54,027 nucleotides of DNA from a candidate division WS1 bacterium (GCA_012522765.1 JAAYJW010000372.1:1-54027), one strand, 5' to 3'. Shown: positions 40,063 to 53,735, counted from the stretch's first letter. A program made the numbers and translations. The notes: generated by a model from the letters alone, not told the origin.

Positions 40063-41367
40063 TCATGATATTAGCGCCCTGACTTCGCGGGCGATGATGT
40101 CGTCTATCTCCGGCACGAAGGGCGCGGGGCGCTCGTGAAAGCAGATCGAGCCCAGCGCCTCATGCCCGCCCTCCGGCAGCATCTGCGCCGTCGGGATATA
40201 CGCGTCGGTGTAGGTGCAGTAGCCGAGGAAGATCGTCTGCTGCTCCGGGAAGAGGTCCTTCACCGCGCGCCCGACTTCGGCCGTCACCTCGCCCGACATA
40301 GCGATGAGCTGAAGCGCGTCATTGAGTCGCCAGTGCGTCAGGTGCATGCGGAAGGCCTCCGGCACCGTGCCGGCGCGCATCTGCTCGAGCAGATCGCTCG
40401 CCCACAGGCGCATGATCGAGCGGTTCGCGGGCCGGTAGCCGTCCGGTATCTCCGTGTCGAAGGGGCTGCTCATGCTCATCAGTTCGTCGCGCGTGGGGAG
40501 CCGCGAGGCGTCGTAGGGTATCGCGAACTCGCGCTCGGCGCTGCTGAGGCTTAGTTCGATCGGCTTCATGTTGTCGGAGCGCACGAAGTCGGCGATGCCA
40601 CGCGCTACTTCGCGCCAGTACTCGCGATACGCCTCCTCGTCACCACGCTCGCTGATGCGGGTCATCACGCTCCCCGCGGCACCCTGCGCGAACGAGGTGA
40701 TGACGTTCTCGCCAAGCTCCTGCTTGAGCCCCTGCGCGATCTGCCCCGGCCAGTCGGCGCTGATGAGCAGCTTGCTCTTTGAGGTCGAGTGGCAGGCGTA
40801 GGAGTAGAGGACGCCGAGCAACTTGTTGTCGCGGTAGAACGCGAAGAGCGGCAACTCGGGATCGTAGTAGCCATCCTCGTTGATCCCGAGGCCCATGATC
40901 CCGGTCTCCGGGTTGCGCCTGCGGCGGTTGACGCCGAAGTGCGCCTCCGTGGTCCCGTGCTTCACGCGCACCGGCTGCAGGTCATCCAGCGCCGCCGCGA
41001 TGCCCTCGCGGATCGTCTGCTCAAGTCTGCAGAGATACTCACGGTCCACGGGCCAGTGCGGGTAGCAGCGCTGGAGGAAGAGCGCCGGCGCTGAGTGGGT
41101 ATGCGAGAGGTTCAGGACAAGTGACGCGCTCGGCAGGCCAAGCTCCGCCTCCGCCCAGAGCTTTGTGCGCCAGGAGAGATCGCGCGACCACTTGAGCAGA
41201 TCGGCGGTGAGGAGGACAAGTCGCGTTCCGGCATCGTCCTCGAGGGCGATGACTCGGAGGTAGAGCGGGTCGTCCACTCCCTGGCTACCCTCAGAGCGGC
41301 TGGGATAGCCAGCAAGAAACGAACCGACCGGTGGCGTGACATCCGCCTCAAAGAAGCCTGCGTTCAT
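40063..41367 (-). CDS. Neutral/alkaline ceramidase N-terminal-domain family hydrolase
   Basis: DVTPP...LAGY, DPLY, SHTHSAP, VNRR, YACHST, SADWPG, QGAAG, SGEV and YIPT. Confidence 0.85.
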   Translation of the reverse strand: MNAGFFEADVTPPVGSFLAGYPSRSEGSQGVDDPLYLRVIALEDDAGTRLVLLTADLLKWSRDLSWRTKLWAEAELGLPSASLVLNLSHTHSAPALFLQRCYPHWPVDREYLCRLEQTIREGIAAALDDLQPVRVKHGTTEAHFGVNRRRRNPETGIMGLGINEDGYYDPELPLFAFYRDNKLLGVLYSYACHSTSKSKLLISADWPGQIAQGLKQELGENVITSFAQGAAGSVMTRISERGDEEAYREYWREVARGIADFVRSDNMKPIELSLSSAEREFAIPYDASRLPTRDELMSMSSPFDTEIPDGYRPANRSIMRLWASDLLEQMRAGTVPEAFRMHLTHWRLNDALQLIAMSGEVTAEVGRAVKDLFPEQQTIFLGYCTYTDAYIPTAQMLPEGGHEALGSICFHERPAPFVPEIDDIIAREVRALIS

Positions 41368-41639
41368 CGGGGTACCTCCCACTGCCGCGCTAGCGTCGGG
41401 GCAGCATTCCTCTCCGGTGATGAATGGCCTCCTGCTAACGCATTTGGTCGCGCATGCGTGAACAGGCGTGGTAACGTTTGTGGCTCGGTTGAACATAGAC
41501 TGTTCATGCTGCGTCCGGGTACCATGACAACGGAGAGGTGGCCGCGTGGTGGGGGTAGACAAATAGCCGAGCAGACGGTATCTTTCCCCGGGGCGGCGCT
41601 TTGCCGGCCCATCACAATGGAAGCTCGCCGACACGCGGG

Positions 41640-42485
41640 GTGAAGCCGGTGGTCGGAAGCTGCAGCGTTGTCTTGAGCAGGAGTCTTCATTCGGACGATC
41701 GCGCTCGCGCACTCGAAGACGAGCTGGCTGAGCGACTGGTCGGGCGCGGCGTTGGCGTGCTCATGCTTCCTCACCTCTATCACCTCCGCCACGGTAGCGA
41801 ACTGTGGCAGGGAGTCGCCTCTCTTCCCGGCGAGATCGCCATCTGCGGGTGGCTCAATCCACGGCCTATCCGGTGTCTCGTGGAGCAGCATGTGGGCCGC
41901 GAAGCCACCTTTTGCTTAGACCTCGGAGCGCTCGCTTCAGTTGATGACGCGCTCGAAACGCTGGCGGGCTTTCTGCCGCAGGGCGGCGGTGAGGGCGAAC
42001 TGCGCGAACTCACCGAGCCGACTGCCGAGCGGTGGTATCCGGTGCTGGATTGCTCGCGCTGCACCTTTTGCGGACACTGCCTGCAGTTCTGCCTCTTTGG
42101 CGTCTACGAGCGGGATGAACAGGGGCGAGTGATTCCGGTGAAGCCCGACAACTGCAAGCCCGGGTGCCCGGCCTGCAGCCGCGTTTGCCCGCAGGGCGCG
42201 ATCATCTTTCCGCTCAGTGACGAACCCGCCATCGCCGGTGCGCCGGGCACGCTCATGCAGCCCGATGCCGCCGCCCGGCGGATGTACTACGTCCGCACAG
42301 GCCTCAACTGCCCCGTTTGTGGTGAAGTGAGCGAGGCGGGCGATCTCTCCTCGCGTGATGCTCCGGTCTGCGAGGAGTGCGGACGGCCTCTGGGCCCCGG
42401 CATCGCTGCCGATTCACCCGTTCATGCAGAAATAGATGCGCTGATCGATTCGCTCGACCGCATGGCCGGCGGTGAAGGCGAGTGA
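41640..42485 (+). CDS. 2x[4Fe-4S] ferredoxin-domain protein with C-terminal CxxC...CxxC
   Basis: RWYPVLDCSRCTFCGHCLQFCLFGVY, NCKPGCPACSRVCPQGAIIFP, then CPVC...CEEC. Start is uncertain (GTG 41640). Confidence 0.85.
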   Translation: MKPVVGSCSVVLSRSLHSDDRARALEDELAERLVGRGVGVLMLPHLYHLRHGSELWQGVASLPGEIAICGWLNPRPIRCLVEQHVGREATFCLDLGALASVDDALETLAGFLPQGGGEGELRELTEPTAERWYPVLDCSRCTFCGHCLQFCLFGVYERDEQGRVIPVKPDNCKPGCPACSRVCPQGAIIFPLSDEPAIAGAPGTLMQPDAAARRMYYVRTGLNCPVCGEVSEAGDLSSRDAPVCEECGRPLGPGIAADSPVHAEIDALIDSLDRMAGGEGE

Positions 42486-43975
42486 CTGCTGTATCGGGAA
42501 AGCCGGTCGTGCTTACCGCCGATCGCACCCTCATGGCCGACCACCGCACGCTCTTCGGCGGTATGATTGCGGCCAGCCAGACGACCACGACCCCACGCCC
42601 GCTGATGGACCACCTTCTCGCGCCGCGCTCGCGGCTCTCTGTGGCTCCCCTGGGACTGAGGCGAGTGGAGGCGGCGCTGCTTTGCGACGGCTTCTCCGAC
42701 GGAGACGTGGCGGTGGTGGAACCTGAGCGGCTGGCTGAGGTCATCGGGCCCGAGACGCGGGTCATCGGCGTGAGCGCCGGTGAGGCATGCGGTCTCGGGA
42801 TGAACTCCACCACGATGACCGCCATCGCCGGAGGCGAGATCTATCCGAGGGCGTTGGTGCTGGAGCTTATGCGCGAAATCGGTCGCCTGCGCGAGCGCGC
42901 TCCGGATGCGCGCGTGGTCCTTGGTGGTCCGGGCGCATGGCAACTGGTGGCCAACGATGCGCTGCGAGTGGAGCTTGGTGTGGACCACGTGGTGCACGGG
43001 CCAGTGGAGGGGAATGTCGCGGGACTGATGCACGCCATGGCCGCCGAAGACGACCTGCCGGTGCTGCTGGAGGGGGGTGCGGTTGATGCCGCGTCCATCC
43101 CGGCGATTCGTGGCGCATCAGCGATGGGGGCGGTGGAGCTTTCGCGCGGCTGCGGGCTGGGCTGCACCTATTGCGTGATGGGGCGGGAGGCAATGCGGCA
43201 TCTGCCGGAGGAGACGATTCTCGCCGACGTGAGGACGAACATCGCGGCGGGGATGCGCGGGATTGCTGCCATCAGCGAGGATCTGCTTCGTTACGGCTGC
43301 ACCGGCTCGAAGCCTCATCCCGAGCGGCTGATTGCTCTGCTGCGGCAGATGCGGGAAATCCCCGGGGCCGGGCTCATTCAGACCGACCACGCGAACATCA
43401 TCTCGGTCGCGGCCTACTCTGACGCTGAGCTTGCACAGGTGAGGGAACTGATGGTTGGCGAGACCGGCTGCCGGCATCCGTGGATGAATCTGGGCGTGGA
43501 GTCGGCCTGCGGGCAGTTGTTGGCACAGAGCGGTTCGGCGAAACTTGGGGGCACTGCTCCGGCGGAGTGGGGTGAGTTCGCGGCTGAGCAGCTTCGACGA
43601 CTGGTGCGAGCGGGGTTCATGCCGATGGCGAGCCTGATAATGTGCCTGCCGGGGGAGACGCCCGAGCATGTGCGGGCGACGCTTGAGTGGGTGAAGGGGC
43701 TATCGCGGGAGCCGCTGACGATCTTCCCGGTGCTCTACGCGCCCATTGACGGCAGCTCGCCACCGACGCGCGCCGATCTGACGCGGGAGCACTGGCGGCT
43801 GATCGGGGCTTGCTACGACATCAATTTCCGTGAGGTGCCGCGGATGTTCCGTGACGGTCAGGCTGCGGTCGGCGTGCCGTGGGCGCGAAGGATGGCGCTG
43901 CAGCTGCTCGGCTACGGACAGGTCGGGCTCTGGAGCGCGCTTTTTGCCTGGCACGGATGGCGCGCCGCACAATGA
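42482..43975 (+). CDS. B12-binding-domain radical SAM enzyme
   Basis: ELSRGCGLGCTYC (CX3CX2C), VVLGGPGAWQ, LGVES and LPGET. GTGA overlap with the ferredoxin gene. Confidence 0.92.
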   Translation: MTAVSGKPVVLTADRTLMADHRTLFGGMIAASQTTTTPRPLMDHLLAPRSRLSVAPLGLRRVEAALLCDGFSDGDVAVVEPERLAEVIGPETRVIGVSAGEACGLGMNSTTMTAIAGGEIYPRALVLELMREIGRLRERAPDARVVLGGPGAWQLVANDALRVELGVDHVVHGPVEGNVAGLMHAMAAEDDLPVLLEGGAVDAASIPAIRGASAMGAVELSRGCGLGCTYCVMGREAMRHLPEETILADVRTNIAAGMRGIAAISEDLLRYGCTGSKPHPERLIALLRQMREIPGAGLIQTDHANIISVAAYSDAELAQVRELMVGETGCRHPWMNLGVESACGQLLAQSGSAKLGGTAPAEWGEFAAEQLRRLVRAGFMPMASLIMCLPGETPEHVRATLEWVKGLSREPLTIFPVLYAPIDGSSPPTRADLTREHWRLIGACYDINFREVPRMFRDGQAAVGVPWARRMALQLLGYGQVGLWSALFAWHGWRAAQ

Positions 43976-45726
43976 ATATTGACCGCGTCCGCCTTGACCA
44001 CGCGATTGATGCGGCCCGGGCGGAGTTGCTCGGGAGGCGCAGCGCCGGGCCGTGGTGGGAGGGGCATCTGTCATCCTCCGCGGTCTCGACGGCCACGGCA
44101 GTGATCGCCCTGCAGTCAGCGGGTTTCGACGAGGATGGCTCGCTCGTTGAGCGGGCAACGGAATGGCTGGTCGGCACGCAGAATGCCGATGGCGGCTGGG
44201 GTGATACTCCTAACAGCCAGAGCAACATCGCGGCAACGGCTCTGACCTGTGCGGCCCTGACGATGGCGCCGGGAGATCATCTCACGGCGCTTGGAGGCGC
44301 CGGTGGATGGATCGAGAGCGAGGCGCCAGGCGGTGATGTGGCGACTGCAATCCGCCGGCGCTACGGAGACGACCGCACCTTCCAGGCGCCGATCCTTGCG
44401 GCATGTGCGCTGGCGGGGCTGGTGGAGTGGGAGGAAGTGCCGCCGCTGCCCTTCGAGCTATCGGTGCTGCCCCGCGGGCTTCATGCGATGCTTCGGCTGC
44501 AGGTGGTCAGCTACGCGCTTCCCGCGCTGATTGCGGTGGGCGCGCTGATACACACGCGGCGCAGGGGCAATCCGGCCGCGCGCATACTGCGCTCGGTGTC
44601 GCTGGGGCGAGCGCTGTCGCTCCTGCCGGACCTGCAACCGAGCAGCGGCGGCTTCCTCGAAGCCGCGCCGCTGACGGCATTCGTGGCGATGAGTCTAGTG
44701 CCGCTGCTCGGCCGCGACCATGTGGTGGTCGAGGGCTGCCTGGAGTTTCTGCGGGAGGGCGTGCGTGGGGATGGCAGTTGGCCCATCGACAGCAACCTTT
44801 CCGTCTGGGTCACTACCAACGCGCTGATGGCGTTGCGCCAGTCGGGAGGCATCCCCGGGGACATCGCCGAGGGGGCGCATGAGTGGCTGCTCAAGCAGCA
44901 GCTTGCGCACACGCATCCCTTCACCGGCGCGGGGCCGGGAGGATGGCCGTGGACGCACCTGCCGGGAGGCGTCCCGGACGCGGACGACACCGCGGGCGCG
45001 GTGATAGAGATGGCCGGCACGGGGGAGGGGGCGGCGGCCAGGGCGGGCGTGGTGTGGCTGAGCGGGCTGCAGAACACCGACGCCGGATGGCCGACCTTCT
45101 GCCAGGGATGGGGGCGCCTGCCGTTTGACAGCAGTTCGCCGGATATCACCGCTCATGCGTTGCGCGCGATAGACGCGACGCTGAAGATGGATGATGATGG
45201 TGGCGGCTATCTGGCACGCCTGCTCGCGCTCAACATGGGCGCCACGATGAAGCGCGGTTTCGGCTATCTGGCCGCGACACAACATGAAGATGGCTCCTGG
45301 GCGCCGCTGTGGTTTGGCAATCAGAGGGTTCGTGGTGAGGCGAACCCGGTCCTTGGGACCGCCCGGGTGCTGGCAGCGTGGGCGGACTGCGGGCACGGGG
45401 ACGATCCTCATGCGCGGCAGGGGCTTGACTATCTGCTGGGCGCGCAGAATGGCGGCGGGGGATGGGGCGGCGGCAAGGGCATCACCAGCAGCGTCGAAGA
45501 GACGGCACTGGCGGTGAGCGCGCTTTCTCGCTTTGCCGGCACTGAGCAGGTTGATGAGGCCATTTCGGATGGTGTGGACTACCTGCTTGCACACGTTGAA
45601 GATGGAAGCTGGGTTGAGCCGTCTCCCATCGGCCTTTACTTTGCGAGCCTGTGGTATACTGAAGATCTCTACCCGATCACATGGACGCTGGAGGCGCTTG
45701 GAAGAGTGCGGAAGCTCGTCGGTTGA
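43972..45726 (+). CDS. Class II terpene cyclase (squalene-hopene cyclase / SqhC-like, two (alpha/alpha)6 barrels)
   Basis: Catalytic VPDADDTA (44971-44994). QW repeats QNADGGWG, QPSSGGF, DGSWP, QNTDAGWP, QHEDGSW and QNGGGGWG. ATGA overlap with the radical SAM gene. Confidence 0.9.
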   Translation: MNIDRVRLDHAIDAARAELLGRRSAGPWWEGHLSSSAVSTATAVIALQSAGFDEDGSLVERATEWLVGTQNADGGWGDTPNSQSNIAATALTCAALTMAPGDHLTALGGAGGWIESEAPGGDVATAIRRRYGDDRTFQAPILAACALAGLVEWEEVPPLPFELSVLPRGLHAMLRLQVVSYALPALIAVGALIHTRRRGNPAARILRSVSLGRALSLLPDLQPSSGGFLEAAPLTAFVAMSLVPLLGRDHVVVEGCLEFLREGVRGDGSWPIDSNLSVWVTTNALMALRQSGGIPGDIAEGAHEWLLKQQLAHTHPFTGAGPGGWPWTHLPGGVPDADDTAGAVIEMAGTGEGAAARAGVVWLSGLQNTDAGWPTFCQGWGRLPFDSSSPDITAHALRAIDATLKMDDDGGGYLARLLALNMGATMKRGFGYLAATQHEDGSWAPLWFGNQRVRGEANPVLGTARVLAAWADCGHGDDPHARQGLDYLLGAQNGGGGWGGGKGITSSVEETALAVSALSRFAGTEQVDEAISDGVDYLLAHVEDGSWVEPSPIGLYFASLWYTEDLYPITWTLEALGRVRKLVG

Positions 45727-45806
45727 CCGGATCTGTTTGCTGCAACGCCCTTCAAGCCCGGATGCGGGGTGGCAGGAGAGGGCGCTTATATTGCCCGTGG
45801 AGGACG

Positions 45807-47234
45807 ATGCCAATGTCAGCAGTAACTGCTCGCACGATCATCGCGACAATAGCCCTGATCGCGCTGGTCGGCGCCGGTGTGTGCGGCGCCGATGATTACG
45901 TGGGCTGGCGAACTGACGGGACCGGGGAGTATCCGGACGCCACGCCGGTTACCACGTGGTCGGCGGAGATGAACGTCATCTGGAAGACGCCGATGTCCGC
46001 AAAGAGCAACTCGCTGCCGACGATCGTCGGCAATCGCCTCTTCGTCTGTTCCGAGCCTGCTACGCTGCTGTGCGTTGACAAGACGACCGGCGCGATCCTC
46101 TGGGAGGCGTCAAACAACCCGGCGGACATCGCGCCTGCCGAGGGGGTCGCCGATCTCGAGGCCAAGACGGCTGAGTTTAACCGTCTGCGGGGCGAGATCG
46201 GCAAGGCGTCTCGCGAACTACGTAATGTGCGCAAGCAGATTCAGGACGCGCCGACTGCCGAGTTGAAGGCGCGCCATGACGAACTGCAGGCGCAGATTGC
46301 GGCGCTCAACGAGCAGATCAAGCCGCTTCGCGAGACGTGGTATGTGCGCCCGGTTACTCATGATTACAACGGCTACTCCTCTCCGACGCCGATCAGCGAC
46401 GGGCAGCACGTCTGGGCGGTCTTCGGCAATGGCATCGCCGCCTGCTACGACATGGACGGCAATCGCATCTGGGCGCGTTTCATCGAGAGGCCGCCAAACG
46501 ACTGGGGAACGTCGAACACACCGGTGCTCGTGGATGGCAAGCTGATCCTGCACCTCGGACAGATGCGGGCACTTGAACCGCTCACCGGCGTCGAGGTCTG
46601 GGCCCAGCCCAAGGCAGGCTGGAACTGGGGTACTTCGTGGGTGCATGAGATTGAGGGCGTGCCGCTGATCATCACCTCCAACGGTGATACCGTCCGTGCC
46701 GACGACGGTACGATCATGGCCAGCGGGCTGGGCAGGCTCCGCTGGGGCTCGGGGCCGATGGTGGACGATGGTGTGCTTTACTACATTGACAACCAGGACG
46801 GCGAGTACATCAGCCGCGCCTGGCAGTTGCCGACGACGCTCGCCGAGCCATTCCAGCCGCAAATGCTCTGGCAGATCACGCCGAAGAAAGATCGTTACTA
46901 CGCCTCCCCGGTCATACTTGACGGGCTAATCTACGCGATCACCCAGGCGGGTGTGCTCTCGTGCATTGATGCCGCCACGGGGGAGATCGTCTACGAGCAG
47001 AACCTGCAGACGGGTAAGCCGGTCTTCTTTGCGAGTATCGTCCTCGCGGGCGACCTGCTCATGGCTTCCCAGGAGAGCGGAACTACGGTCATCTTCCAGC
47101 CCGGGCGCAGCTACGTTGAGGTGGCGCGCAACGACCTCGGCGAGATGGTCCGCAGTACACCGGTGTTTGATGGCGACCTGATGTACGTGCGCGGCTATGA
47201 GCATCTGTTCTGCATAGGTAACGCTGCCGGATAG
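45807..47234 (+). CDS. Exported PQQ-binding-like (BamB-like) beta-propeller protein
   Basis: Signal peptide; WSAEMNVIWKTP, LLCVDKTTGAILW, CYDMDGNRIW, YASPV, CIDAATGEIVY and STPVFDG. Confidence 0.88.
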   Translation: MPMSAVTARTIIATIALIALVGAGVCGADDYVGWRTDGTGEYPDATPVTTWSAEMNVIWKTPMSAKSNSLPTIVGNRLFVCSEPATLLCVDKTTGAILWEASNNPADIAPAEGVADLEAKTAEFNRLRGEIGKASRELRNVRKQIQDAPTAELKARHDELQAQIAALNEQIKPLRETWYVRPVTHDYNGYSSPTPISDGQHVWAVFGNGIAACYDMDGNRIWARFIERPPNDWGTSNTPVLVDGKLILHLGQMRALEPLTGVEVWAQPKAGWNWGTSWVHEIEGVPLIITSNGDTVRADDGTIMASGLGRLRWGSGPMVDDGVLYYIDNQDGEYISRAWQLPTTLAEPFQPQMLWQITPKKDRYYASPVILDGLIYAITQAGVLSCIDAATGEIVYEQNLQTGKPVFFASIVLAGDLLMASQESGTTVIFQPGRSYVEVARNDLGEMVRSTPVFDGDLMYVRGYEHLFCIGNAAG

Positions 47235-47249
47235 CGGAGGACATGATCG

Positions 47250-48989
47250 ATGTCCCACGGCCAACTCGTGCCTGAGGCGCACGCACCAGGTGAGATCAAG
47301 CAGGTGCCGCAGGAGGCGGCGGTCCGGGAGAAGATCCGGACCGCTGCCGCCGACATCATGCATGGCAGACCCCGTGCAAGTGCCCCCGGACGAGACCTAC
47401 TCGCCGAGCTTGGCGCCGAGTTGCTGCAGCGCCTCGAGCTGCCGCCGACTTGCCTCGGCTTCACGATGGTGGCGCTGAGCAACGCATTCTGGCGTGAGCA
47501 ATACGAGGCGGTGCCGCTGCATCGGCGCTTGCTGCTGCTGCCCAAGTGCCTGCGGGACCCCGTCGCCTGCAGGGGGACGTTCGACTCGGTCGGCCTCAAC
47601 TGCGCCGGCTGCGGTGCGTGCGTAATCGGCGACCTCGTGGCGAAGGCACAGACGCTCGGATATTCGGTGATCGTGGCCGAGGGCACCTCGTCGGTCATCA
47701 TGAAGGTGCTCGAAGGAGAGGCCGATGCCATCCTCGGTGTCGCCTGCCTTGATTCGCTCGATGAGTCCTTCGAGCCGATCGCTGACCTCGGAGTGCCGAA
47801 TCAGGCGATCCCCCTCCTGAGGGACGGCTGCGAACGTACGGAGACAGAGCCCGCGCTGATTGCGCAGTTGATGACCGTCATGCAATCGTCAGCGATCCAG
47901 ACCACGCGCACGTCGGTTCCTCTGCTACGGGCCACCCGTGAGATATTCGCCGCCTCGTCTCTTGCCACGCTGCTGGGACTGCACGTCTCGGACGGTGCGT
48001 TTGCCTCAGGGGCGGCCGATGAGCCGCTTCTGCAGACCGAGGCGCTGGGTCTTGACTGGCTGGTGTGTGGCGGCAAGCGCCTGCGGCCGTTCGTGACCGT
48101 CGCGGCTTACGCACTCGGCCGCCATGGTGTGAGGTCGCTGGAGCCGCGCGCGAATGCAGGCGAGATGCTCGATGAGCCGGTGCAGGCGCTGGCGGTGGCG
48201 ATCGAGGCGCTGCACAAGGCGTCGCTGATCCATGACGACATCGCTGATGGTGACGAGTTCCGCTACGGCCGCCGCACACTGCACGCAAGCCACGGCACCG
48301 GGATCGCAATCAACGTGGGCGACTGGCTGGTGGGGCTTGGATATCGGCTTGCCGGGGACCAGGCGGAGGCTTTCGGAGGCGATCGGGCGGCCGAGATCGC
48401 GACGCGACTGGCGAAGGCACAGCTTGCGCTCTGCAAGGGACAGGGCGCGGAGCTTGCGTGGATCGGCAGCGAGAGCAGGGCGCTGCGGGCAGCCGACGCG
48501 CTTGCGATCGGCGCGCTGAAGACCGCTCCGGCGTTCGAAGTTGCGCTGCATGCGGGTCTCATCGCGTCTGGAGCGCACTACGAGCGTGACGTAGTCGCGC
48601 GCTTCGCCACCTACCTCGGTGAGGCCTATCAGGTGCTCAACGATCTTGAGGACTGGCGCGACGATGTCGGCAACAAGGTGTCGGTGGGGCTTGATGTGCT
48701 CAGCGGGCGGCCCACGATGCTGCGCGCCTTCGCCACTGAGGCGGGTGGGTGGGAGCAACTGGCTCGTTTGCGTGAGGAGTCCGATCCGCAGGCCATCGTG
48801 GCGTCTGTGCGGCGACTGTACGATGAGACCGGGGCGTTTGAGAAGACGAGGGCGCTGCTGGGGGGGCTGCGTAACCGGTGCCTGACGCTTGCCGAGGGTA
48901 TGAGGCCGGAGGCACTTGGCGAGTTACTGCGCTTCCTGACGCGGACAGTCCTGCGCGAGCGAGGCGAACCGCGGACGCGGGAGGTCTGA
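47250..48989 (+). CDS. DUF116 (Cys-rich) domain fused to trans-isoprenyl diphosphate synthase
   Basis: N-terminus RRLLLLPKCLR...C...LNCAGCGACVIG...AEG...ILGVAC...IPLLRDGC. C-terminus GGKRLRP, HKASLIHDDIAD, GQ, LKT and YQVLNDLED. Confidence 0.9.
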   Translation: MSHGQLVPEAHAPGEIKQVPQEAAVREKIRTAAADIMHGRPRASAPGRDLLAELGAELLQRLELPPTCLGFTMVALSNAFWREQYEAVPLHRRLLLLPKCLRDPVACRGTFDSVGLNCAGCGACVIGDLVAKAQTLGYSVIVAEGTSSVIMKVLEGEADAILGVACLDSLDESFEPIADLGVPNQAIPLLRDGCERTETEPALIAQLMTVMQSSAIQTTRTSVPLLRATREIFAASSLATLLGLHVSDGAFASGAADEPLLQTEALGLDWLVCGGKRLRPFVTVAAYALGRHGVRSLEPRANAGEMLDEPVQALAVAIEALHKASLIHDDIADGDEFRYGRRTLHASHGTGIAINVGDWLVGLGYRLAGDQAEAFGGDRAAEIATRLAKAQLALCKGQGAELAWIGSESRALRAADALAIGALKTAPAFEVALHAGLIASGAHYERDVVARFATYLGEAYQVLNDLEDWRDDVGNKVSVGLDVLSGRPTMLRAFATEAGGWEQLARLREESDPQAIVASVRRLYDETGAFEKTRALLGGLRNRCLTLAEGMRPEALGELLRFLTRTVLRERGEPRTREV

Positions 48990-48991
48990 GC

Positions 48992-49903
48992 GTGGGCTAC
49001 CTCGACGTGCTGGACGGCATCCTTCGCCCGGGGGTGCACCTGCTTGGAGAGGGATTCGCGGCGCTCGAATGTGGCTGGATTGAGCGCCAGGAGTTGGCCG
49101 GTGGCGGTTTCCGCGGGCGCAGCGGCGGCGATGATCTCTACTACACGGACTTTGCATTGCGCGCAGTGGACCTCATTGGGCCGCAGTCACCTCTGTTCGC
49201 GACAACGGCAGAGCGGATGCGTCACAATCTGCCCGCGCCACTCGACGTTGTTTCTGCGTTCAGCATCCTCAGTTGCGCCCGCACGCTCTCCCGCCACGGC
49301 CACGCCATCAGCGCGGATCAGCGTCACATTCGCAAGCTGCTTGCGCGGCAGACGCTGCCGGAGGGCGGTTTCGGTGTCAACAAGTCCAGCGAGACCAGCG
49401 CCTATCAGACCTTCCTCGGCACGCTCTGCCGCCAACTGCTCGGAGATGAGGCCCCGGTGGCTGCCGACTGTGACGCAATTCGCAGGCTGCAGCGTGAAAG
49501 CGGCGGATTCGCAGAACGCGAGGCTGGCGATGTGGCGCAGACGAATGCCACCGCTGCTGCCGCGGCGGTACTGCTGATGGGCTCCGCGCTGCAATCTGAC
49601 GACGCCGAGGGGGTTACGCGTTTCGTCGCCTCTATGCAGGCAGAGGACGGTGGTCTGCGCGCACATGCCGAGGCACGCGGAGGTGACCTTCTGTCGAGCT
49701 TCACCGCGTTGCTGACGCTGTGTCTGCTGGGGGCGCCGGCGGCGCTGGAGCTCCCGGCGCTGGGTCGGTTTGTGAAGGGCGCAGTCAGGCCCCGTGGAGG
49801 CTTCGGGGCCTCACAGCACGATCCCGGAGCGGACGTCGAGTACACCTACTACGGGATCGCCACTCTCGGTCTGCTGCGCTCGCTGGTGGAGGCGGACTGC
49901 TGA
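48992..49903 (+). CDS. Single-domain prenyltransferase/squalene oxidase repeat protein (GGTase-beta-like barrel)
   Basis: QELAGGGFRGR, DLYYTDFA, QTLPEGGF, LQRESGGF, MQAEDGG, GDLLSSF and GGFGA...DVEYTYYG. GGGAGG RBS. Confidence 0.85.
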   Translation: MGYLDVLDGILRPGVHLLGEGFAALECGWIERQELAGGGFRGRSGGDDLYYTDFALRAVDLIGPQSPLFATTAERMRHNLPAPLDVVSAFSILSCARTLSRHGHAISADQRHIRKLLARQTLPEGGFGVNKSSETSAYQTFLGTLCRQLLGDEAPVAADCDAIRRLQRESGGFAEREAGDVAQTNATAAAAAVLLMGSALQSDDAEGVTRFVASMQAEDGGLRAHAEARGGDLLSSFTALLTLCLLGAPAALELPALGRFVKGAVRPRGGFGASQHDPGADVEYTYYGIATLGLLRSLVEADC

Positions 49904-51198
49904 TGCGCATCGTGCACCTCGCCGCCGGAGCGGGCAGTATGTATTGCGGCGGATGCGTTCGCGATGCCGCGATGGCGCGCGCCCTCATCGCACGGGGGCA
50001 TGACGTGCAGATCGTCCCGCTCTACACGCCGCTGCGAATTGATGCGGATCTTCCGGTGACGGAGGTGCATCTCGGCGCGCTCAACGCGTACCTCCAGCAA
50101 CTGTCCGGCATCTTCGCGAGAGTCCCGCGACCTATCGCGCGTGTGCTCGACAATGAGCGGCTGTTGCGCTTCGTTTCGCGTTTCGCGGTCAGCACGAAGC
50201 CCTCGCAGCTTGGGCCGATGACGGTCTCGGTGATCGCAGGTAGCGATGGCAGGCAGCGCGCGGAACTGAGTCGCCTCGTGGACTTCCTCGCGTGCGAGGC
50301 GCGGCCGGATGCGGTGACGATCACCAACTCGATGCTCTCCGGCGTGGCGCCGGAGATGAAGCGGCGGCTGCGTGTGCCGGTGCTCTGCGAGGTGAAGGGC
50401 GAGGATGGCTTCATTGACGCCATCCCCGAGCCGCATCGATCTGAGGCGCTAACGCTGCTGAGGCGTAATGCAGCCTCGGTGGATCGCTTCATCTCGCCCA
50501 CCGCAGCCTACGCCGATCACATGGCCCAGTGGCTGGAGGTGGAGCGTGAACGGATCGCGGTGGTGAGCACCATCATTGACGCGGAGGCATTGCATCGTGC
50601 CGGGCCACGCCTTCGCCGGCCGTTCACCGTCGGCTATCTCTCCGTGATCACACCGCGCAAGGGTCTGCACGTGCTGGTTGATGCACTGGCGATCCTGGTT
50701 CGTGAGGGCCGCGATGTGAGGTTGCGCGCTGCGGGGCAGGTGCTGGATCGGCGCTACTGGCGGGAGATTCGCGCCACCATCCGCCGGGAGCGCCTGAGTG
50801 ATCGCGTGGAATACCTGGGGGAAGTCAGCGTGGCGGATAAAGTGACGCTTTTGCACTCGTTGAGCGCATTCTGCCAGCCGTCAATCAAGCCGGAGGTGCT
50901 TGGGACGGCCGCGCTGGAGGCACAGGCGGCGGGCGTGCCGGTAGTCGCGCCTGATGAAGGTGTCTTCCCGGGGATGCTCGGGCTCACCGGTGGTGGGGTG
51001 ATGTTCGAGTCGGGGGATGTTGACGCCCTCGCAGAGCGGCTGGCTGAGCTGATGGATGATCCGGTACGCGCGGATGCGATGGGGGAGAGTGGGGCGGCGC
51101 AGGTTGCGCGGCAGTTTTCAGCGGAGTTGGCTTCTGAGACCATGGAAGCGATACTGACGGCACTGGAGGCGCAGGGAGATGGCGAAGAAGCTGTGTAA
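49903..51198 (+). CDS. Glycosyltransferase family 4
   Basis: TGATG overlap with the previous gene. MRIVHLAAGAGSMYCGGC, GHDV, KGLHVLVDA and EVLGTAALEAQAAGVPVV (E-X7-E). Confidence 0.92.
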   Translation: MRIVHLAAGAGSMYCGGCVRDAAMARALIARGHDVQIVPLYTPLRIDADLPVTEVHLGALNAYLQQLSGIFARVPRPIARVLDNERLLRFVSRFAVSTKPSQLGPMTVSVIAGSDGRQRAELSRLVDFLACEARPDAVTITNSMLSGVAPEMKRRLRVPVLCEVKGEDGFIDAIPEPHRSEALTLLRRNAASVDRFISPTAAYADHMAQWLEVERERIAVVSTIIDAEALHRAGPRLRRPFTVGYLSVITPRKGLHVLVDALAILVREGRDVRLRAAGQVLDRRYWREIRATIRRERLSDRVEYLGEVSVADKVTLLHSLSAFCQPSIKPEVLGTAALEAQAAGVPVVAPDEGVFPGMLGLTGGGVMFESGDVDALAERLAELMDDPVRADAMGESGAAQVARQFSAELASETMEAILTALEAQGDGEEAV

Positions 51199-51331
51199 GC
51201 TGGCAAAGAAGCTCGAGTTGAAGGAGATTGCTGCGGCGGCGCGAAGCGGTGACTTCATCTGCAGCAAGTGCGGGCGGACCGCCTCGGACAAGAAGTCTCT
51301 GTGCAGGCCGGTGGGGGTGGAGGAGCTGTAG
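51179..51331 (+). CDS. 50-aa Lys/Cys-rich small protein (missed by the ORF track)
   Basis: GGAGG RBS at 51165-51169. Translates as MAKKLCKLAKKLELKEIAAAARSGDFICSKCGRTASDKKSLCRPVGVEEL*, with strongly G/C third positions. Confidence 0.7.
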   Translation: MAKKLCKLAKKLELKEIAAAARSGDFICSKCGRTASDKKSLCRPVGVEEL

Positions 51332-51350
51332 CCCGAGCCGTGAGAGGGGA

Positions 51351-53735
51351 ATGACAATGTTGGGCGAGTTCTCGATCGTTGCTGCACTGGTCTTTGGCCT
51401 GCTGTTCGCCGCGACAGGTGTCGCGCGTCCGGATGAATTCGGTGATCCGGATCGCGCGGCGGAGATAGCGTCTATGCTGCCTGCTAACCCGGGAGGGCCG
51501 GGGCGCCCGATCAGCGATCGCGAGGCATGGGAGGCGCTAGTCGCTGCTGGCGCCTGCAGCGGCGCGATCGCGACCGCGGAGAAGCATCTCGCCACGCCGC
51601 TCCCGGACCTGCCCGACGAGCTCTTCCTCGACTTCTCCCGCACTGGCAACCGCACACGCTGGCAGAGCGTCTCCGGTCAGCGCCGCGGCAGGCTCGCGCC
51701 GCTGGTGCTGGCCGAATGTGCGGAGGACCAGGGGCGTTTCATCGCGGCCATCGAGGAGCTTGTGGCGGCGCTCTGTGCCGAACGCACGTGGGTCATGCCC
51801 GCGCATGACCGGAGCCTCGCGAACTTCAACCGCGAGCAGATTGACATCGACCTCGCCTCATCCGCGCTGGGGTGGCAACTGGCGCTTACGAACTACCTGC
51901 TTGGCGACCGCCTCAGCGACGAGACACGCGACGTGATCCGCACCAACGTCGCCGAACGCGTGCTGGAGCCGGCGCTCGCCATGTACCGGGGCGACCGCGA
52001 GCCCAACTGGTGGATGCGCACCACCAGCAACTGGAACGCGGTCTGCCTCGCGGGAGTGACCGGGGCGGCGCTGGCGCAGGTCGAGGACCGCAACCTGCGC
52101 GCGGATTACATCGTTGGTGCGGAGAAGTCGTCAGAGGGCTTCCTGAGGGGCTTCCCGGCGGACGGCTACTGCACCGAAGGCCTCGGCTACTGGAACTACG
52201 GCTTCGGGCACTACATCCTGCTGGCGGAGGCGGTATATCAGGCGACCGGAGGCGGCGTTGACTTCATGGCGCGCCCCGGCGTCGCCGCGCCGGCCACCTT
52301 CGGCGCCCGCATTCAGATCATGGGCGGTGTGGCGCCCGCCTTCGCCGACTGCGCGATCAACGCCCGCCCCGACAGCCGCTGGATGCACTACATCAACGGA
52401 CGCTACGGCCTCCGCCTCGATGCACACGATTCTTTTGAGCCGGCGCGGGCGTTCAGCAGTGACCTCCAGGGCGCGACGATCTTCGGCTTCCCCAACTCCG
52501 CCAGCGAAGGCCCGCTGCTCGATGGCGCCGACCTCGGCTCGCCGCTGCGGGCGTGGTTCAATGACGCGGGCATCCTCGTCAGCCGTCCTATTCCCGATAG
52601 CGATTGCCTGCTCGGGGTCGCGCTTAAGGGCGGCAACAACGCCGAGCATCACAACCACAACGATGTTGGCTCATACGTCTGCGTAGTGCAGGATCGCCCG
52701 GTGCTGCTTGATCCCGGCAGCGAGGTCTACACGGCGCGTACCTTCAGCAACCGCCGCTACGAGAGCAACGTGCTGAATTCGTGGGGACATCCGGTGCCGG
52801 TCGTTGCGGGGCAGCTTCAGCGCACGGGGAGCGATGCCCACGGCGTGGTCCTCGCCAGTGACTTCAGCGATGAGCGCGACACGCTCACGCTGGACATCGG
52901 TTCGGCCTACGAAGTGCCCGAACTGACGCGCCTGGAGCGTAGCTTCGTATACGATCGCACCGGTGATGGCTCGCTCACAGTGAGCGACGCTGTAGCCTTC
53001 GCCGAACCGAGGAGCTTCGAGACCGCGCTGATCACCGACGGCTCGTGGGAGCGCGTGGATGGGCAGACGCTGCTGGTGCGCGATGGCAACCGCGCCGTGA
53101 ACGTGCGCGTGGACACCGGTGGCTTGGCGTGGGAGCTTGTGGTGGATGAGATCGAGGAGGACGCGAAGGCGCAGCCTGCACGCCTCGGCATCCGGCTGAG
53201 CGAGCCCGTCTCGGAGGCGACGGTGACGGTGATGATCATGCCGATCCGCGACTTCGGGCTCACGGGCGAGAGCGTGCTCTTCAACGGCGACTTCGCGCTC
53301 GGAGCGGACGGCTGGTCGATCTCGGCGAACTCGCTGGGCGAGATCAGCGACGAGCAGGTGGCGGTGGGGGAGCGTTCGCTGAAGATCACCGACGAGAGCG
53401 ACACTGCCGGGGCGAACGTCACCTCATCGCGCATCAGGGTTGAGGGCGCGGGAAAGTGGCTGCTGCGCGGGCAGGCGCGGATCGAGAGCGGCTCGGGCAT
53501 CGGGATGTACATGCGCTACTACGACGAGAACGGTGCGCGTCTCAACGAGGCCGACCGGCGTGGCAACATTCCGCCGGTGGGGACGCTTGAGGGCCCGGTG
53601 GGGGAGTGGGCGCCCTTCGAGTTCGCCTTCGAGACGCCCGCGGGCACCGCAAGCATGGACCTGTGGATCCACAGCTTCAATGCCGCTGTGGTCACCGCGT
53701 TCATCGGCGACCTGCGGATTGTGCCGGGGGAGTAG
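51351..53735 (+). CDS. Heparinase II/III-family lyase-like protein with C-terminal CBM4/9-like domain
   Basis: Signal-like N-terminus; TWVMPAH, IDL, SNWNAVC, DGYCTEGLGYWNYGF, KGGNNAEHHNHNDVGSY, DPG and HPVPVV. C-terminal LFNGDF...GERSLKITD. Confidence 0.88.
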   Translation: MTMLGEFSIVAALVFGLLFAATGVARPDEFGDPDRAAEIASMLPANPGGPGRPISDREAWEALVAAGACSGAIATAEKHLATPLPDLPDELFLDFSRTGNRTRWQSVSGQRRGRLAPLVLAECAEDQGRFIAAIEELVAALCAERTWVMPAHDRSLANFNREQIDIDLASSALGWQLALTNYLLGDRLSDETRDVIRTNVAERVLEPALAMYRGDREPNWWMRTTSNWNAVCLAGVTGAALAQVEDRNLRADYIVGAEKSSEGFLRGFPADGYCTEGLGYWNYGFGHYILLAEAVYQATGGGVDFMARPGVAAPATFGARIQIMGGVAPAFADCAINARPDSRWMHYINGRYGLRLDAHDSFEPARAFSSDLQGATIFGFPNSASEGPLLDGADLGSPLRAWFNDAGILVSRPIPDSDCLLGVALKGGNNAEHHNHNDVGSYVCVVQDRPVLLDPGSEVYTARTFSNRRYESNVLNSWGHPVPVVAGQLQRTGSDAHGVVLASDFSDERDTLTLDIGSAYEVPELTRLERSFVYDRTGDGSLTVSDAVAFAEPRSFETALITDGSWERVDGQTLLVRDGNRAVNVRVDTGGLAWELVVDEIEEDAKAQPARLGIRLSEPVSEATVTVMIMPIRDFGLTGESVLFNGDFALGADGWSISANSLGEISDEQVAVGERSLKITDESDTAGANVTSSRIRVEGAGKWLLRGQARIESGSGIGMYMRYYDENGARLNEADRRGNIPPVGTLEGPVGEWAPFEFAFETPAGTASMDLWIHSFNAAVVTAFIGDLRIVPGE

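Follow-up and report, generated by a model that had tools for sequence, protein, structure and literature searches.

Why does a bacterium carry a relative of the archaeal enzymes that close rings in the chains of membrane lipids, and what does this relative act upon? The question is raised by a 54,027-nucleotide stretch of DNA from a candidate division WS1 bacterium (GCA_012522765.1, JAAYJW010000372.1:1-54027; the whole stretch is called the window below, and positions are counted from its first letter), in which a radical S-adenosylmethionine (SAM) gene at 42482..43975 lies between the gene for a ferredoxin-like protein and that for a cyclase resembling squalene-hopene cyclase (SHC). An earlier note, made from the sequence alone, had likened the encoded protein to the archaeal glycerol dialkyl glycerol tetraether (GDGT) ring synthases (Grs) and had placed it inside a bacterial terpene cluster. 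The Grs enzymes, whose substrates are saturated biphytanyl chains and which underlie the TEX86 palaeothermometer, are to our knowledge the only known route to cyclopentane rings in saturated isoprenoid chains. Based on homology, domain make-up, operon structure and gene-order conservation, we consider it probable that the window protein, a bacterial member of the Grs superfamily made together with the ferredoxin-like protein and the SHC-like cyclase, acts on an isoprenoid produced by a conserved cassette of genes.

Membership in the Grs superfamily

The open reading frame (ORF) at 42482..43975 is a genuine gene and not a chance reading frame, because it has a Pfam match, many homologues of nearly full length, a confident structural model and start and stop codons that overlap those of its neighbours. 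Only one Pfam family lies above its cut-off (Radical_SAM, PF04055, 32.6 bits against 29.5), and 705 proteins, out of 8000 candidates scored, match at E<=0.001, the best 120 of them with 52-100% identity over 94-100% of the length. The gene and its parts are the following.

42482..43975, plus strand: Grs-superfamily radical SAM gene, 497 amino acids, GTG start
42482..43081, plus strand: N-terminal Rossmann-like domain (residues ~1-200), from the secondary structure of the model; of B12-binding type by fold only
43151..43174, plus strand: CX3CX2C (C224, C228, C231), motif of the radical SAM [4Fe-4S] cluster, conserved in the archaeal group too
43784..43972, plus strand: two long C-terminal helices (residues 435-462 and 467-496), from the model

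All the strings quoted in the earlier note were found again in the translation, namely VVLTADRTLMADH (residues 9-21), APLGLRRVEAAL (55-66), GF (70-71), VAVVEPERLAEVIGPETRVIGVS (76-98), GLG (104-106), STTMT (109-113), GG (117-118), GGPGAWQ (148-154) and C224-x3-C228-x2-C231. The N-terminal domain motifs VVLTADRT, APLGLRRxEAAL and GGPGAWQ (the last at 42923-42943) are common to the archaeal consensus, and C224, C228 and C231 are the only invariant cysteines in the alignment of the bacterial family (30 of 30 rows). No named NCBIfam family is reached by the protein, all 13 families found at E<=0.01 being sub-threshold; the best match, TIGR04013 (B12_SAM_MJ_1487), gives 75.1 bits against a curated cut-off of 251. 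This sub-threshold fingerprint is shared by the archaeal relatives described below, which are likewise without an NCBIfam model of their own.

As references we used GrsA (Q4J8I0) and GrsB (Q4JC22) of Sulfolobus acidocaldarius, reached by exact-sequence look-up of ten ORFs and identified with these accessions in PMC13023045 (here and below, statements from the literature refer to the retrieved text of each source). The 528-residue P0563 is AAY79657.1 (Q4JC22) and the 489-residue P0571 is AAY80898.1 (Q4J8I0); P0569, with 505 residues, shares a 90% cluster with P0571, and the difference in length probably stems from the called start. A genome search within the order Sulfolobales, started from one locus, gave matches at E<=1e-15 in 149 of 151 genomes, and five genomes of ~2.2 Mb from that order hold two strong and one weak Grs match each.

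In BLASTP comparisons, the window protein is 26% identical to GrsA over 478 amino acids (E 9e-44) and 25% identical to GrsB over 457 (E 3e-43), GrsA and GrsB themselves being 31% identical (E 1e-63), a value that is also quoted in PMC8473941. The best hits are reciprocal between the window protein and GrsA/GrsB: at E<=0.01 the profile of the bacterial family finds in the S. acidocaldarius genome only GrsA (2.8e-64), GrsB (2.0e-54) and a 399-residue paralogue (1.8e-10), and GrsA finds in the window's genome the gene at 42482..43975 (3.4e-37), with the next match at 1.8e-3. Seven other B12/methylthiotransferase-like radical SAM ORFs of this genome give only partial matches to the window protein (E 3e-10 to 0.5).

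These reciprocal hits, together with the behaviour of the HpnR model, bear out the earlier note's view that the protein is closer to GrsA and GrsB than to the hopanoid enzymes HpnP, HpnR and HpnJ. The latter (C-2 and C-3 methylases in the case of HpnP and HpnR) resemble it in being radical SAM enzymes of class B type which tailor cyclic triterpenoids and are encoded near a squalene-hopene cyclase. When run over the genome, however, the HpnR model (TIGR04367) matches four other radical SAM genes (on contigs C341, C118, C325 and C234; 3e-35 to 4e-19) and not the window gene (C190:42482-43975) at E<=0.001. None of HpnP, HpnR and HpnJ is among the 13 NCBIfam families found at E<=0.01, although the HpnP and HpnJ models, which NCBIfam presumably holds, were not searched by accession.

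The relationship becomes stronger at the level of whole families. A profile-profile comparison of 30 bacterial and 40 archaeal rows gives a probability of 100 (E 6e-103, 477 columns, 29% identity), with 30 positions conserved in both groups alike, including GGPGAW and RGCxxxCxxC. A phmmer search of 1.84 billion cluster representatives found 557 proteins at E<=0.001 (290 at 1e-10 and 123 at 1e-30), and so few among so many indicate a tight superfamily. The hits fall into two tiers, one of bacterial proteins with at least 41% identity and a second of full-length proteins with 26-34%. Of 20 second-tier representatives that were looked up, five belong to clusters with a named organism, in each case an archaeon (three from Bathyarchaeia, one each from Archaeoglobaceae and Euryarchaeota); the 40-row alignment of this tier carries the same series of motifs as the bacterial family. 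Searched against species genomes, the alignment of the archaeal tier found relatives in at least 455 of 602 matched stretches, and 79 of its best 80 loci are labelled archaeal.

By homology, then, the protein is a member of the Grs superfamily, falling neither with HpnP, HpnR and HpnJ nor with an unrelated class B clade. It shares with GrsA and GrsB full-length homology, a single cluster motif, the lack of auxiliary cysteines, long C-terminal helices, a Pfam fingerprint of PF04055 alone above cut-off and the motifs xVLTxDR, AP(Y/L)GLR(K/R)xEA, GGPGAWQ, RGCxxxCxFC, SEDxxxYG, G(I/V)E(T/S) and LPGE. One label of the earlier note has to be given up: "Gms-type" does not apply, since the literature describes Gms as a three-cluster SPASM/Twitch enzyme (PMC11214058, PMC13459092) and only three cysteines are invariant here. 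The bacterial proteins differ from GrsA and GrsB in their hosts (Armatimonadota and the Planctomycetota-Verrucomicrobiota-Chlamydiota (PVC) phyla), in forming a clade of their own and in five positions which are fixed differently in the bacterial and archaeal groups, for example L226 in place of R.

The phylogeny was computed on 76 rows (17 bacterial, 55 archaeal, including GrsA, GrsB and their Acidianus and Metallosphaera orthologues, and four B12/methylthiotransferase-like paralogues of the window's genome as outgroup). In the careful tree (IQ-TREE, LG+G4, 1000 ultrafast bootstraps), both the Grs superfamily, against the outgroup, and the bacterial clade receive a support of 100/99; in a quick tree the bacterial clade was nested with the GrsB and ammonia-oxidiser clades. 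The bacterial proteins are thus well supported as a distinct lineage of the Grs superfamily, either nested within or sister to the archaeal rows, in a data set in which many rows were flagged for composition bias and the outgroup sits on long branches.

Some members of the superfamily deserve a mention in their own right. A short Grs-like ORF of ~376-438 amino acids is present, in addition to the two longer ones, in S. acidocaldarius and in four further genomes of Sulfolobaceae type (L264 at G047:C1, about 1,830,700-1,831,400, and matching places in G039, G100, G096 and G153). The 399-residue S. acidocaldarius copy, which did not come up in the retrieved literature text, groups with the GrsB clade (100/98). 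In a Thermococcus metagenome-assembled genome (MAG), a gene for a 539-residue Grs-superfamily protein, with close relatives in Pyrococcus horikoshii, Thermococcus pacificus and Methanocaldococcus fervens, lies directly 5' of a Gms-like SPASM radical SAM gene of 483 amino acids (L169:4992-8127). That this protein might be a Gmm methylase, as its SPASM neighbour had suggested, was dropped, because it falls inside the Grs superfamily in the tree; a grs gene inside the same gms cluster, described by Garcia et al., was also counted against it. Finally, two members of archaeal type carry bacterial labels ("Candidatus Acidiferrales bacterium" for L149, which is the one exception among the best 80 archaeal-tier loci, and "Geobacterales bacterium" for P0429), which could reflect gene transfer or mis-binning.

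A conserved cassette with an SHC-like cyclase

The GTG start of the radical SAM gene overlaps the stop codon of the ferredoxin-like gene upstream (GTGA at 42482-42485), and its own stop codon overlaps the ATG of the SHC-like gene downstream (ATGA at 43972-43975). Because of these overlaps, we take the ferredoxin-like protein, the radical SAM enzyme and the SHC-like cyclase to be made together. The neighbouring genes of the cassette are the following.

41601..42485, plus strand: ferredoxin-like partner; Pfam 4Fe-4S dicluster matches below cut-off
43972..45726, plus strand: SHC-like class II terpenoid cyclase; Pfam SQHop_cyclase_C and SQHop_cyclase_N, QW-type repeats
45681..47234, plus strand: PQQ/BamB-like beta-propeller protein (Pfam), with an N-terminal hydrophobic segment (residues 44-72)
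47250..48989, plus strand: DUF116 domain (Cys-rich, CAGCGAC) fused to a polyprenyl-synthase-like domain (Pfam)
48878..49903, plus strand: prenyltransferase alpha-alpha-toroid protein (Pfam PF00432)
49720..51198, plus strand: glycosyltransferase family 4 (GT4) protein (Pfam, tblastn)

The terpene-cluster context proposed in the earlier note has been confirmed by Pfam domains, by tblastn and by a survey of gene order. Two scans of one-genome-per-species contigs (14 and 74 loci) left, after removal of 11 duplicates, 75 loci. The ferredoxin-like gene immediately precedes the radical SAM gene in 63 of 70 judgeable loci, and the SHC-like gene immediately follows it in 61 of 67. Where at least 5.5 kb of downstream sequence is available, 44 of 51 loci include the DUF116-polyprenyl synthase; one locus (L071) has the ferredoxin partner only. 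With duplicates included, the toroid protein is found at 52 of 86 loci, and the beta-propeller (30 of 86) and the GT4 glycosyltransferase (20 of 86, many loci ending earlier) are variable members. By label, all 74 loci of the larger scan come from bacteria or metagenome assemblies, the carriers belonging to Armatimonadota (including 'Ca. Zipacnadia' and WS1), Planctomycetota (including Brocadiia, Pirellulales and Phycisphaerae) and Verrucomicrobiota (including Kiritimatiellota and Victivallales).

This organisation sets the bacterial gene, with its dedicated ferredoxin-like partner and its cassette of terpene cyclase and polyprenyl synthase, apart from archaeal Grs. At 173 archaeal Grs loci, no ferredoxin-like, cyclase, propeller or toroid gene was found (0/173 each), and the polyprenyl-synthase part was found once (1/173). 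The ferredoxin partnership is thus specific to bacteria, since none of these archaeal loci carries the partner gene.

The enzymes of the cassette keep motifs that bear on what they may do. The cyclase carries the catalytic-type DxDD within VPDADDTA (residue 367 of the long ORF, 43879-45726); of 65 cyclase homologues, 64 retain PDxDDT[SA] and one has VSDADDTA. In the polyprenyl-synthase-like domain, the first Asp-rich motif reads DDIADGD (DDI[EA]DxD in the eight commonest variants, which make up 42 of 52 covered homologues), and the second site reads NDLEDW instead of DDxxD; NDL[ED]DW is found in all ten listed variants of this second site, covering 19 of 50 homologues. Since NDL[ED]DW is reminiscent of NSE/DTE, a motif of class I terpene synthases, this protein may be something other than a simple chain-elongating synthase.

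The genome of the window, which is 97.7% complete, helps to narrow down the substrate. The cassette cyclase is its only SHC-type match, and no squalene/phytoene synthase (PF00494) was found in it; these two findings argue for isoprenoid rather than squalene chemistry. This agrees with Santana-Molina and co-workers (2020), who suggest that the SHC-like enzymes of planctomycetes, with their catalytic residues retained and a polyprenyl synthase encoded nearby, may use a non-squalene precursor (PMC7306690). Such SHC-like genes form a clade that McShea and co-workers (2025) describe as of 'unknown function' (PMC12414744), with members in PVC, in the Fibrobacterota-Chlorobiota-Bacteroidota (FCB) group, in Spirochaetota and in Acidobacteriota, and with genes reported in Gemmata. 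The cassette cyclase resembles this orphan clade in its catalytic DxDD and in its neighbouring polyprenyl synthase (PMC7306690, PMC12414744), and a DUF116-polyprenyl synthase fusion has been noted for Pirellula staleyi (PMC5898192). The retrieved text of PMC12414744 does not mention Armatimonadota, and neither a radical SAM nor a ferredoxin gene is mentioned in the retrieved text of PMC7306690 (main text and supplement text) or of PMC12414744.

Together, the conserved operon with a prenyl-chain synthase and with an orphan hopene-cyclase-like enzyme suggests that the radical SAM enzyme probably tailors a cyclic isoprenoid lipid of a novel kind. The same operon context argues against an archaeal GDGT as the substrate and for a different, bacterial isoprenoid.

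Several starts within the cassette are probably later than the longest ORFs indicate. For the ferredoxin-like protein the true start is probably the GTG at 41640 or 41649: alignments with its homologues begin at residue 16-23 of the long ORF, and the later start is also supported by a ceramidase-like ORF on the opposite strand (40063-41712, minus, 549 amino acids, with a weak match of 38 bits to the N-terminal part of neutral/alkaline ceramidase), with which the long ORF shares its first 112 bases. The toroid protein has a probable start near 48992, just past the preceding stop (its tblastn matches begin at residue 19-41), and the GT4 protein a probable ATG start near 49903. Further upstream, the ceramidase-like, iron-containing alcohol dehydrogenase, arginase-family and dihydrodipicolinate-synthase-family genes are not conserved with the cassette, and directly 3' of the GT4 gene there is an 835-residue ORF (51228-53735, plus strand) with weak heparinase II/III and CBM_4_9 matches, below cut-off. 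Elsewhere, two Pirellulaceae loci without the cassette show a Grs-like gene divergently paired with a gene for a 619-residue fusion of pyridine-nucleotide disulphide oxidoreductase and rhodanese (L050:3875-5734 and L055:1844-3703, both on the minus strand).

Cofactors, candidate electron donor and proposed reaction

The AlphaFold model of the radical SAM protein (from a 30-row alignment; mean predicted local distance difference test score, pLDDT, of 92.7 and predicted template modelling score, pTM, of 0.92) consists of a Rossmann-like alpha/beta N-terminal domain and a partial triose-phosphate isomerase (TIM) barrel, predicted with high confidence, followed by two long C-terminal helices. The last helix (residues 467-496) is Trp-rich and amphipathic in the model and may be a membrane or substrate-binding element. 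For GrsA and GrsB, AlphaFold models likewise have a C-terminal helix and a Rossmann-like N-terminal domain of B12-binding type (PMC13459092). Foldseek matches spanning both domains (template modelling score, TM, 0.51-0.58) were obtained with MiaB, MgmA, TsrM, AprD4, CysS, OxsB and TokK, the B12-dependent radical SAM structures so spanned being 6wte, 9ccb, 9n1b, 5ul4 and 7kdx. There was no Grs structure in the copy of the PDB searched, and a PDB search by sequence gave weak matches only, to MiaB, RimO and TsrM (E 0.006 and weaker).

Given that only C224, C228 and C231 are invariant, the radical SAM protein is expected to bind one cluster and no auxiliary Fe-S cluster, as is also the case for GrsA and GrsB (PMC13459092). 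Going by its modelled fold, the enzyme may use cobalamin. The supply of this cofactor by uptake is plausible, as the genome holds a cobalamin riboswitch (C329:6685-6880, 79.9 bits) and a B12-binding_2 protein.

The candidate electron donor is the ferredoxin-like protein, which carries two 4Fe-4S motifs (CxxCxxCxxxC at residues 154-164 and CxxxCxxCxxxC at 185-196, in long-ORF numbering), a flavodoxin-like N-terminal domain, two CxxC pairs and a conserved C-terminal helix. Its model has a pLDDT of 73.5 overall and ~90 in the N-terminal domain, and the structural matches of that domain are generic (flavodoxin-, CheY- and corrinoid-protein-like, Z up to 8.5, in the commonplace range). A predicted complex of this protein with the radical SAM enzyme scored 0.00 in a run without controls, which speaks neither for nor against binding.

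In the mechanism that we propose, the ferredoxin-like protein would reduce the [4Fe-4S] cluster of the radical SAM enzyme, SAM would be cleaved to give a 5'-deoxyadenosyl radical, and this radical would take a hydrogen atom from an unactivated carbon in the isoprenoid that the neighbouring enzymes make and cyclise. The outcome that we favour is a new C-C bond, that is, the closure of a small ring as in Grs; this would be the single most likely outcome, and we put it forward tentatively, as something that may well turn out otherwise. Cobalamin-dependent methylation would come next, as a less likely outcome, and desaturation or some other reaction would be a rather improbable one.

Several points weigh against tailoring by Grs-type chemistry. 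The function of the members of the bacterial clade is predicted from homology and gene context, and homology alone cannot fix the reaction, because the B12-dependent radical SAM enzymes that modify archaeal tetraethers include ring synthases, methylases and a desaturase, and homologues are diverse in activity (bioRxiv 10.1101/2025.10.20.683597). In the phylogeny, the backbone of the careful tree collapses to a basal polytomy of about a dozen lineages, giving no tie to either validated ring synthase, and, compared with the quick tree, a topology that holds the archaeal rows together as a single clade gains 15 log-likelihood units and is not rejected (approximately unbiased test, p-AU 0.74). As regards cobalamin, the non-cobalamin enzymes AprD4 and MiaB match the fold equally well in Foldseek, the B12-binding domain PF02310 scores below threshold on the N-terminal domain (14.9 bits, E 0.024; on GrsA and GrsB themselves it gives no match at E<=10), and CobS (PF02654) was not found in the window's genome. 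No geranylgeranyl-reductase-like gene was seen in the cassette, and the substrate carbon may for this reason differ from that of Grs. Lastly, in four of the 75 loci (L032, L050, L055 and L072) the gene stands without the cassette, among unrelated neighbours (the oxidoreductase-rhodanese fusion, an RDD protein, a sigma-54 activator) which give no functional clue.

Among the other reactions that could be carried out on such a scaffold, methylation comes first. A cobalamin-dependent radical SAM methylase acting on a cyclic polyprenoid, in the manner of HpnP/HpnR or of Gmm/Cgm and with a Grs-type scaffold, would fit the fold matches to the B12-dependent methylases TsrM, MgmA, CysS and TokK, and class B enzymes are well known to methylate cyclic triterpenoids (PMC13459092); moreover, the B12-dependent radical SAM subfamily is functionally labile, homologous GDGT-modifying enzymes methylating or desaturating (bioRxiv 10.1101/2025.10.20.683597). 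We nevertheless regard a methylase as unlikely, because the characterised enzymes closest to it are ring synthases, the gene is not matched by the HpnR model and PF02310 stays below threshold. The archaeal enzymes Gmm, Cgm, Pgm and Ted, compared here by description only, share this broad class, have inert isoprenoid chains as their substrates and, by prediction, are attached peripherally to the membrane (bioRxiv 10.1101/2025.10.20.683597), yet at E<=0.01 the family profile detects no further radical SAM protein in the S. acidocaldarius genome, including the methylase Saci_1785, if it is in that genome. Saci_1785 also serves as an outgroup to Grs in PMC8473941.

A desaturation or oxidation of the isoprenoid, as carried out by the tetraether desaturase Ted, or a radical rearrangement with no new C-C bond, appears to us distinctly less probable. 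Ted does show that the desaturation of inert chains is within reach of B12-dependent radical SAM enzymes that work on archaeal lipid tails, but it is a homologue of Gmm and not of Grs (bioRxiv 10.1101/2025.10.20.683597); similarly, the dehydratase AprD4 is among the structural matches, but the cassette is without a hydratase-like partner.

The published use of bacterial Grs homologues points in another direction, towards a ring synthase for branched or other membrane-spanning tetraethers, which would yield ringed branched GDGTs (brGDGTs). GrsA homologues have been found in 94 of 684 Planctomycetota MAGs, for which ringed brGDGTs were suggested (PMC11868695), and GrsA/GrsB homologues have been used as the ring step of a brGDGT pathway, including in Planctomycetaceae (PMC13023045). 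For the window gene this is very doubtful: it is joined in an operon with an SHC-like cyclase (61 of 67 loci) and accompanied by a polyprenyl synthase (44 of 51), no fatty-acid or ether-lipid genes were seen in the window cassette, and the chains of brGDGTs are not isoprenoid.

That the protein is a methylthiotransferase of MiaB, MtaB or RimO type, acting on tRNA or protein, is hardly credible: it has the same two-domain layout (a Rossmann-like N-terminal domain and a radical SAM barrel), MiaB is the top Foldseek row (E 1.8e-15, TM 0.52-0.58), weak NCBIfam and PDB sequence matches to MiaB and RimO exist and automatic cluster names (in the ESM Atlas and some records) read 'MtaB family', but the conserved N-terminal three-cysteine set for a second cluster is absent, Pfam finds no TRAM domain, all methylthiotransferase scores are far below cut-off (TIGR00089, 38.8 against 251 bits) and the operon context is isoprenoid.

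What the cassette may make, and what follows from it

Bacterial hits to GrsA and GrsB, read as a potential for ringed brGDGTs, were already known, and so was the neighbourhood of SHC-like and polyprenyl-synthase genes. In the literature searched, we found no link between bacterial Grs homologues and the SHC-like cassette (one review deals with GrsA and with hopene cyclase, but in different chapters), although supplementary figures, which lay outside the search, could show the gene unnamed. The window and 74 related loci now tie the bacterial clade to an operon of an orphan SHC-like cyclase and a polyprenyl synthase, and in a genome with no squalene synthase it is more likely that the radical SAM enzyme tailors a cyclic polyprenoid than that it works on brGDGTs. 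This matters for environmental genomics, where bacterial 'GrsA/GrsB homologues' serve as evidence for ringed branched tetraethers in Planctomycetota (PMC11868695, PMC13023045), and it is a warning against the transfer of function by homology within the Grs superfamily.

In its most specific and admittedly speculative form, which we would not expect to hold in every part, our proposal is that the cassette makes an undescribed bacterial membrane lipid, a polycyclic, glycosylated polyprenoid that derives from a regular polyprenyl chain, not from squalene, and whose remaining chain or ring system would be further closed or cross-linked by radical chemistry of the archaeal Grs kind, driven by the dedicated ferredoxin. 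The cassette provides a testable gene set for a missing lipid class, with related clusters in cultured planctomycetes. If the glycosylated polyprenoid reading is true, GrsA/GrsB hits in bacterial MAGs would cease to indicate a potential for ringed brGDGTs, the cassette genes would become a candidate source of the orphan cyclised regular polyprenoid hydrocarbons found in sediments, and Armatimonadota and PVC bacteria would share a ring-forming lipid chemistry with archaea.

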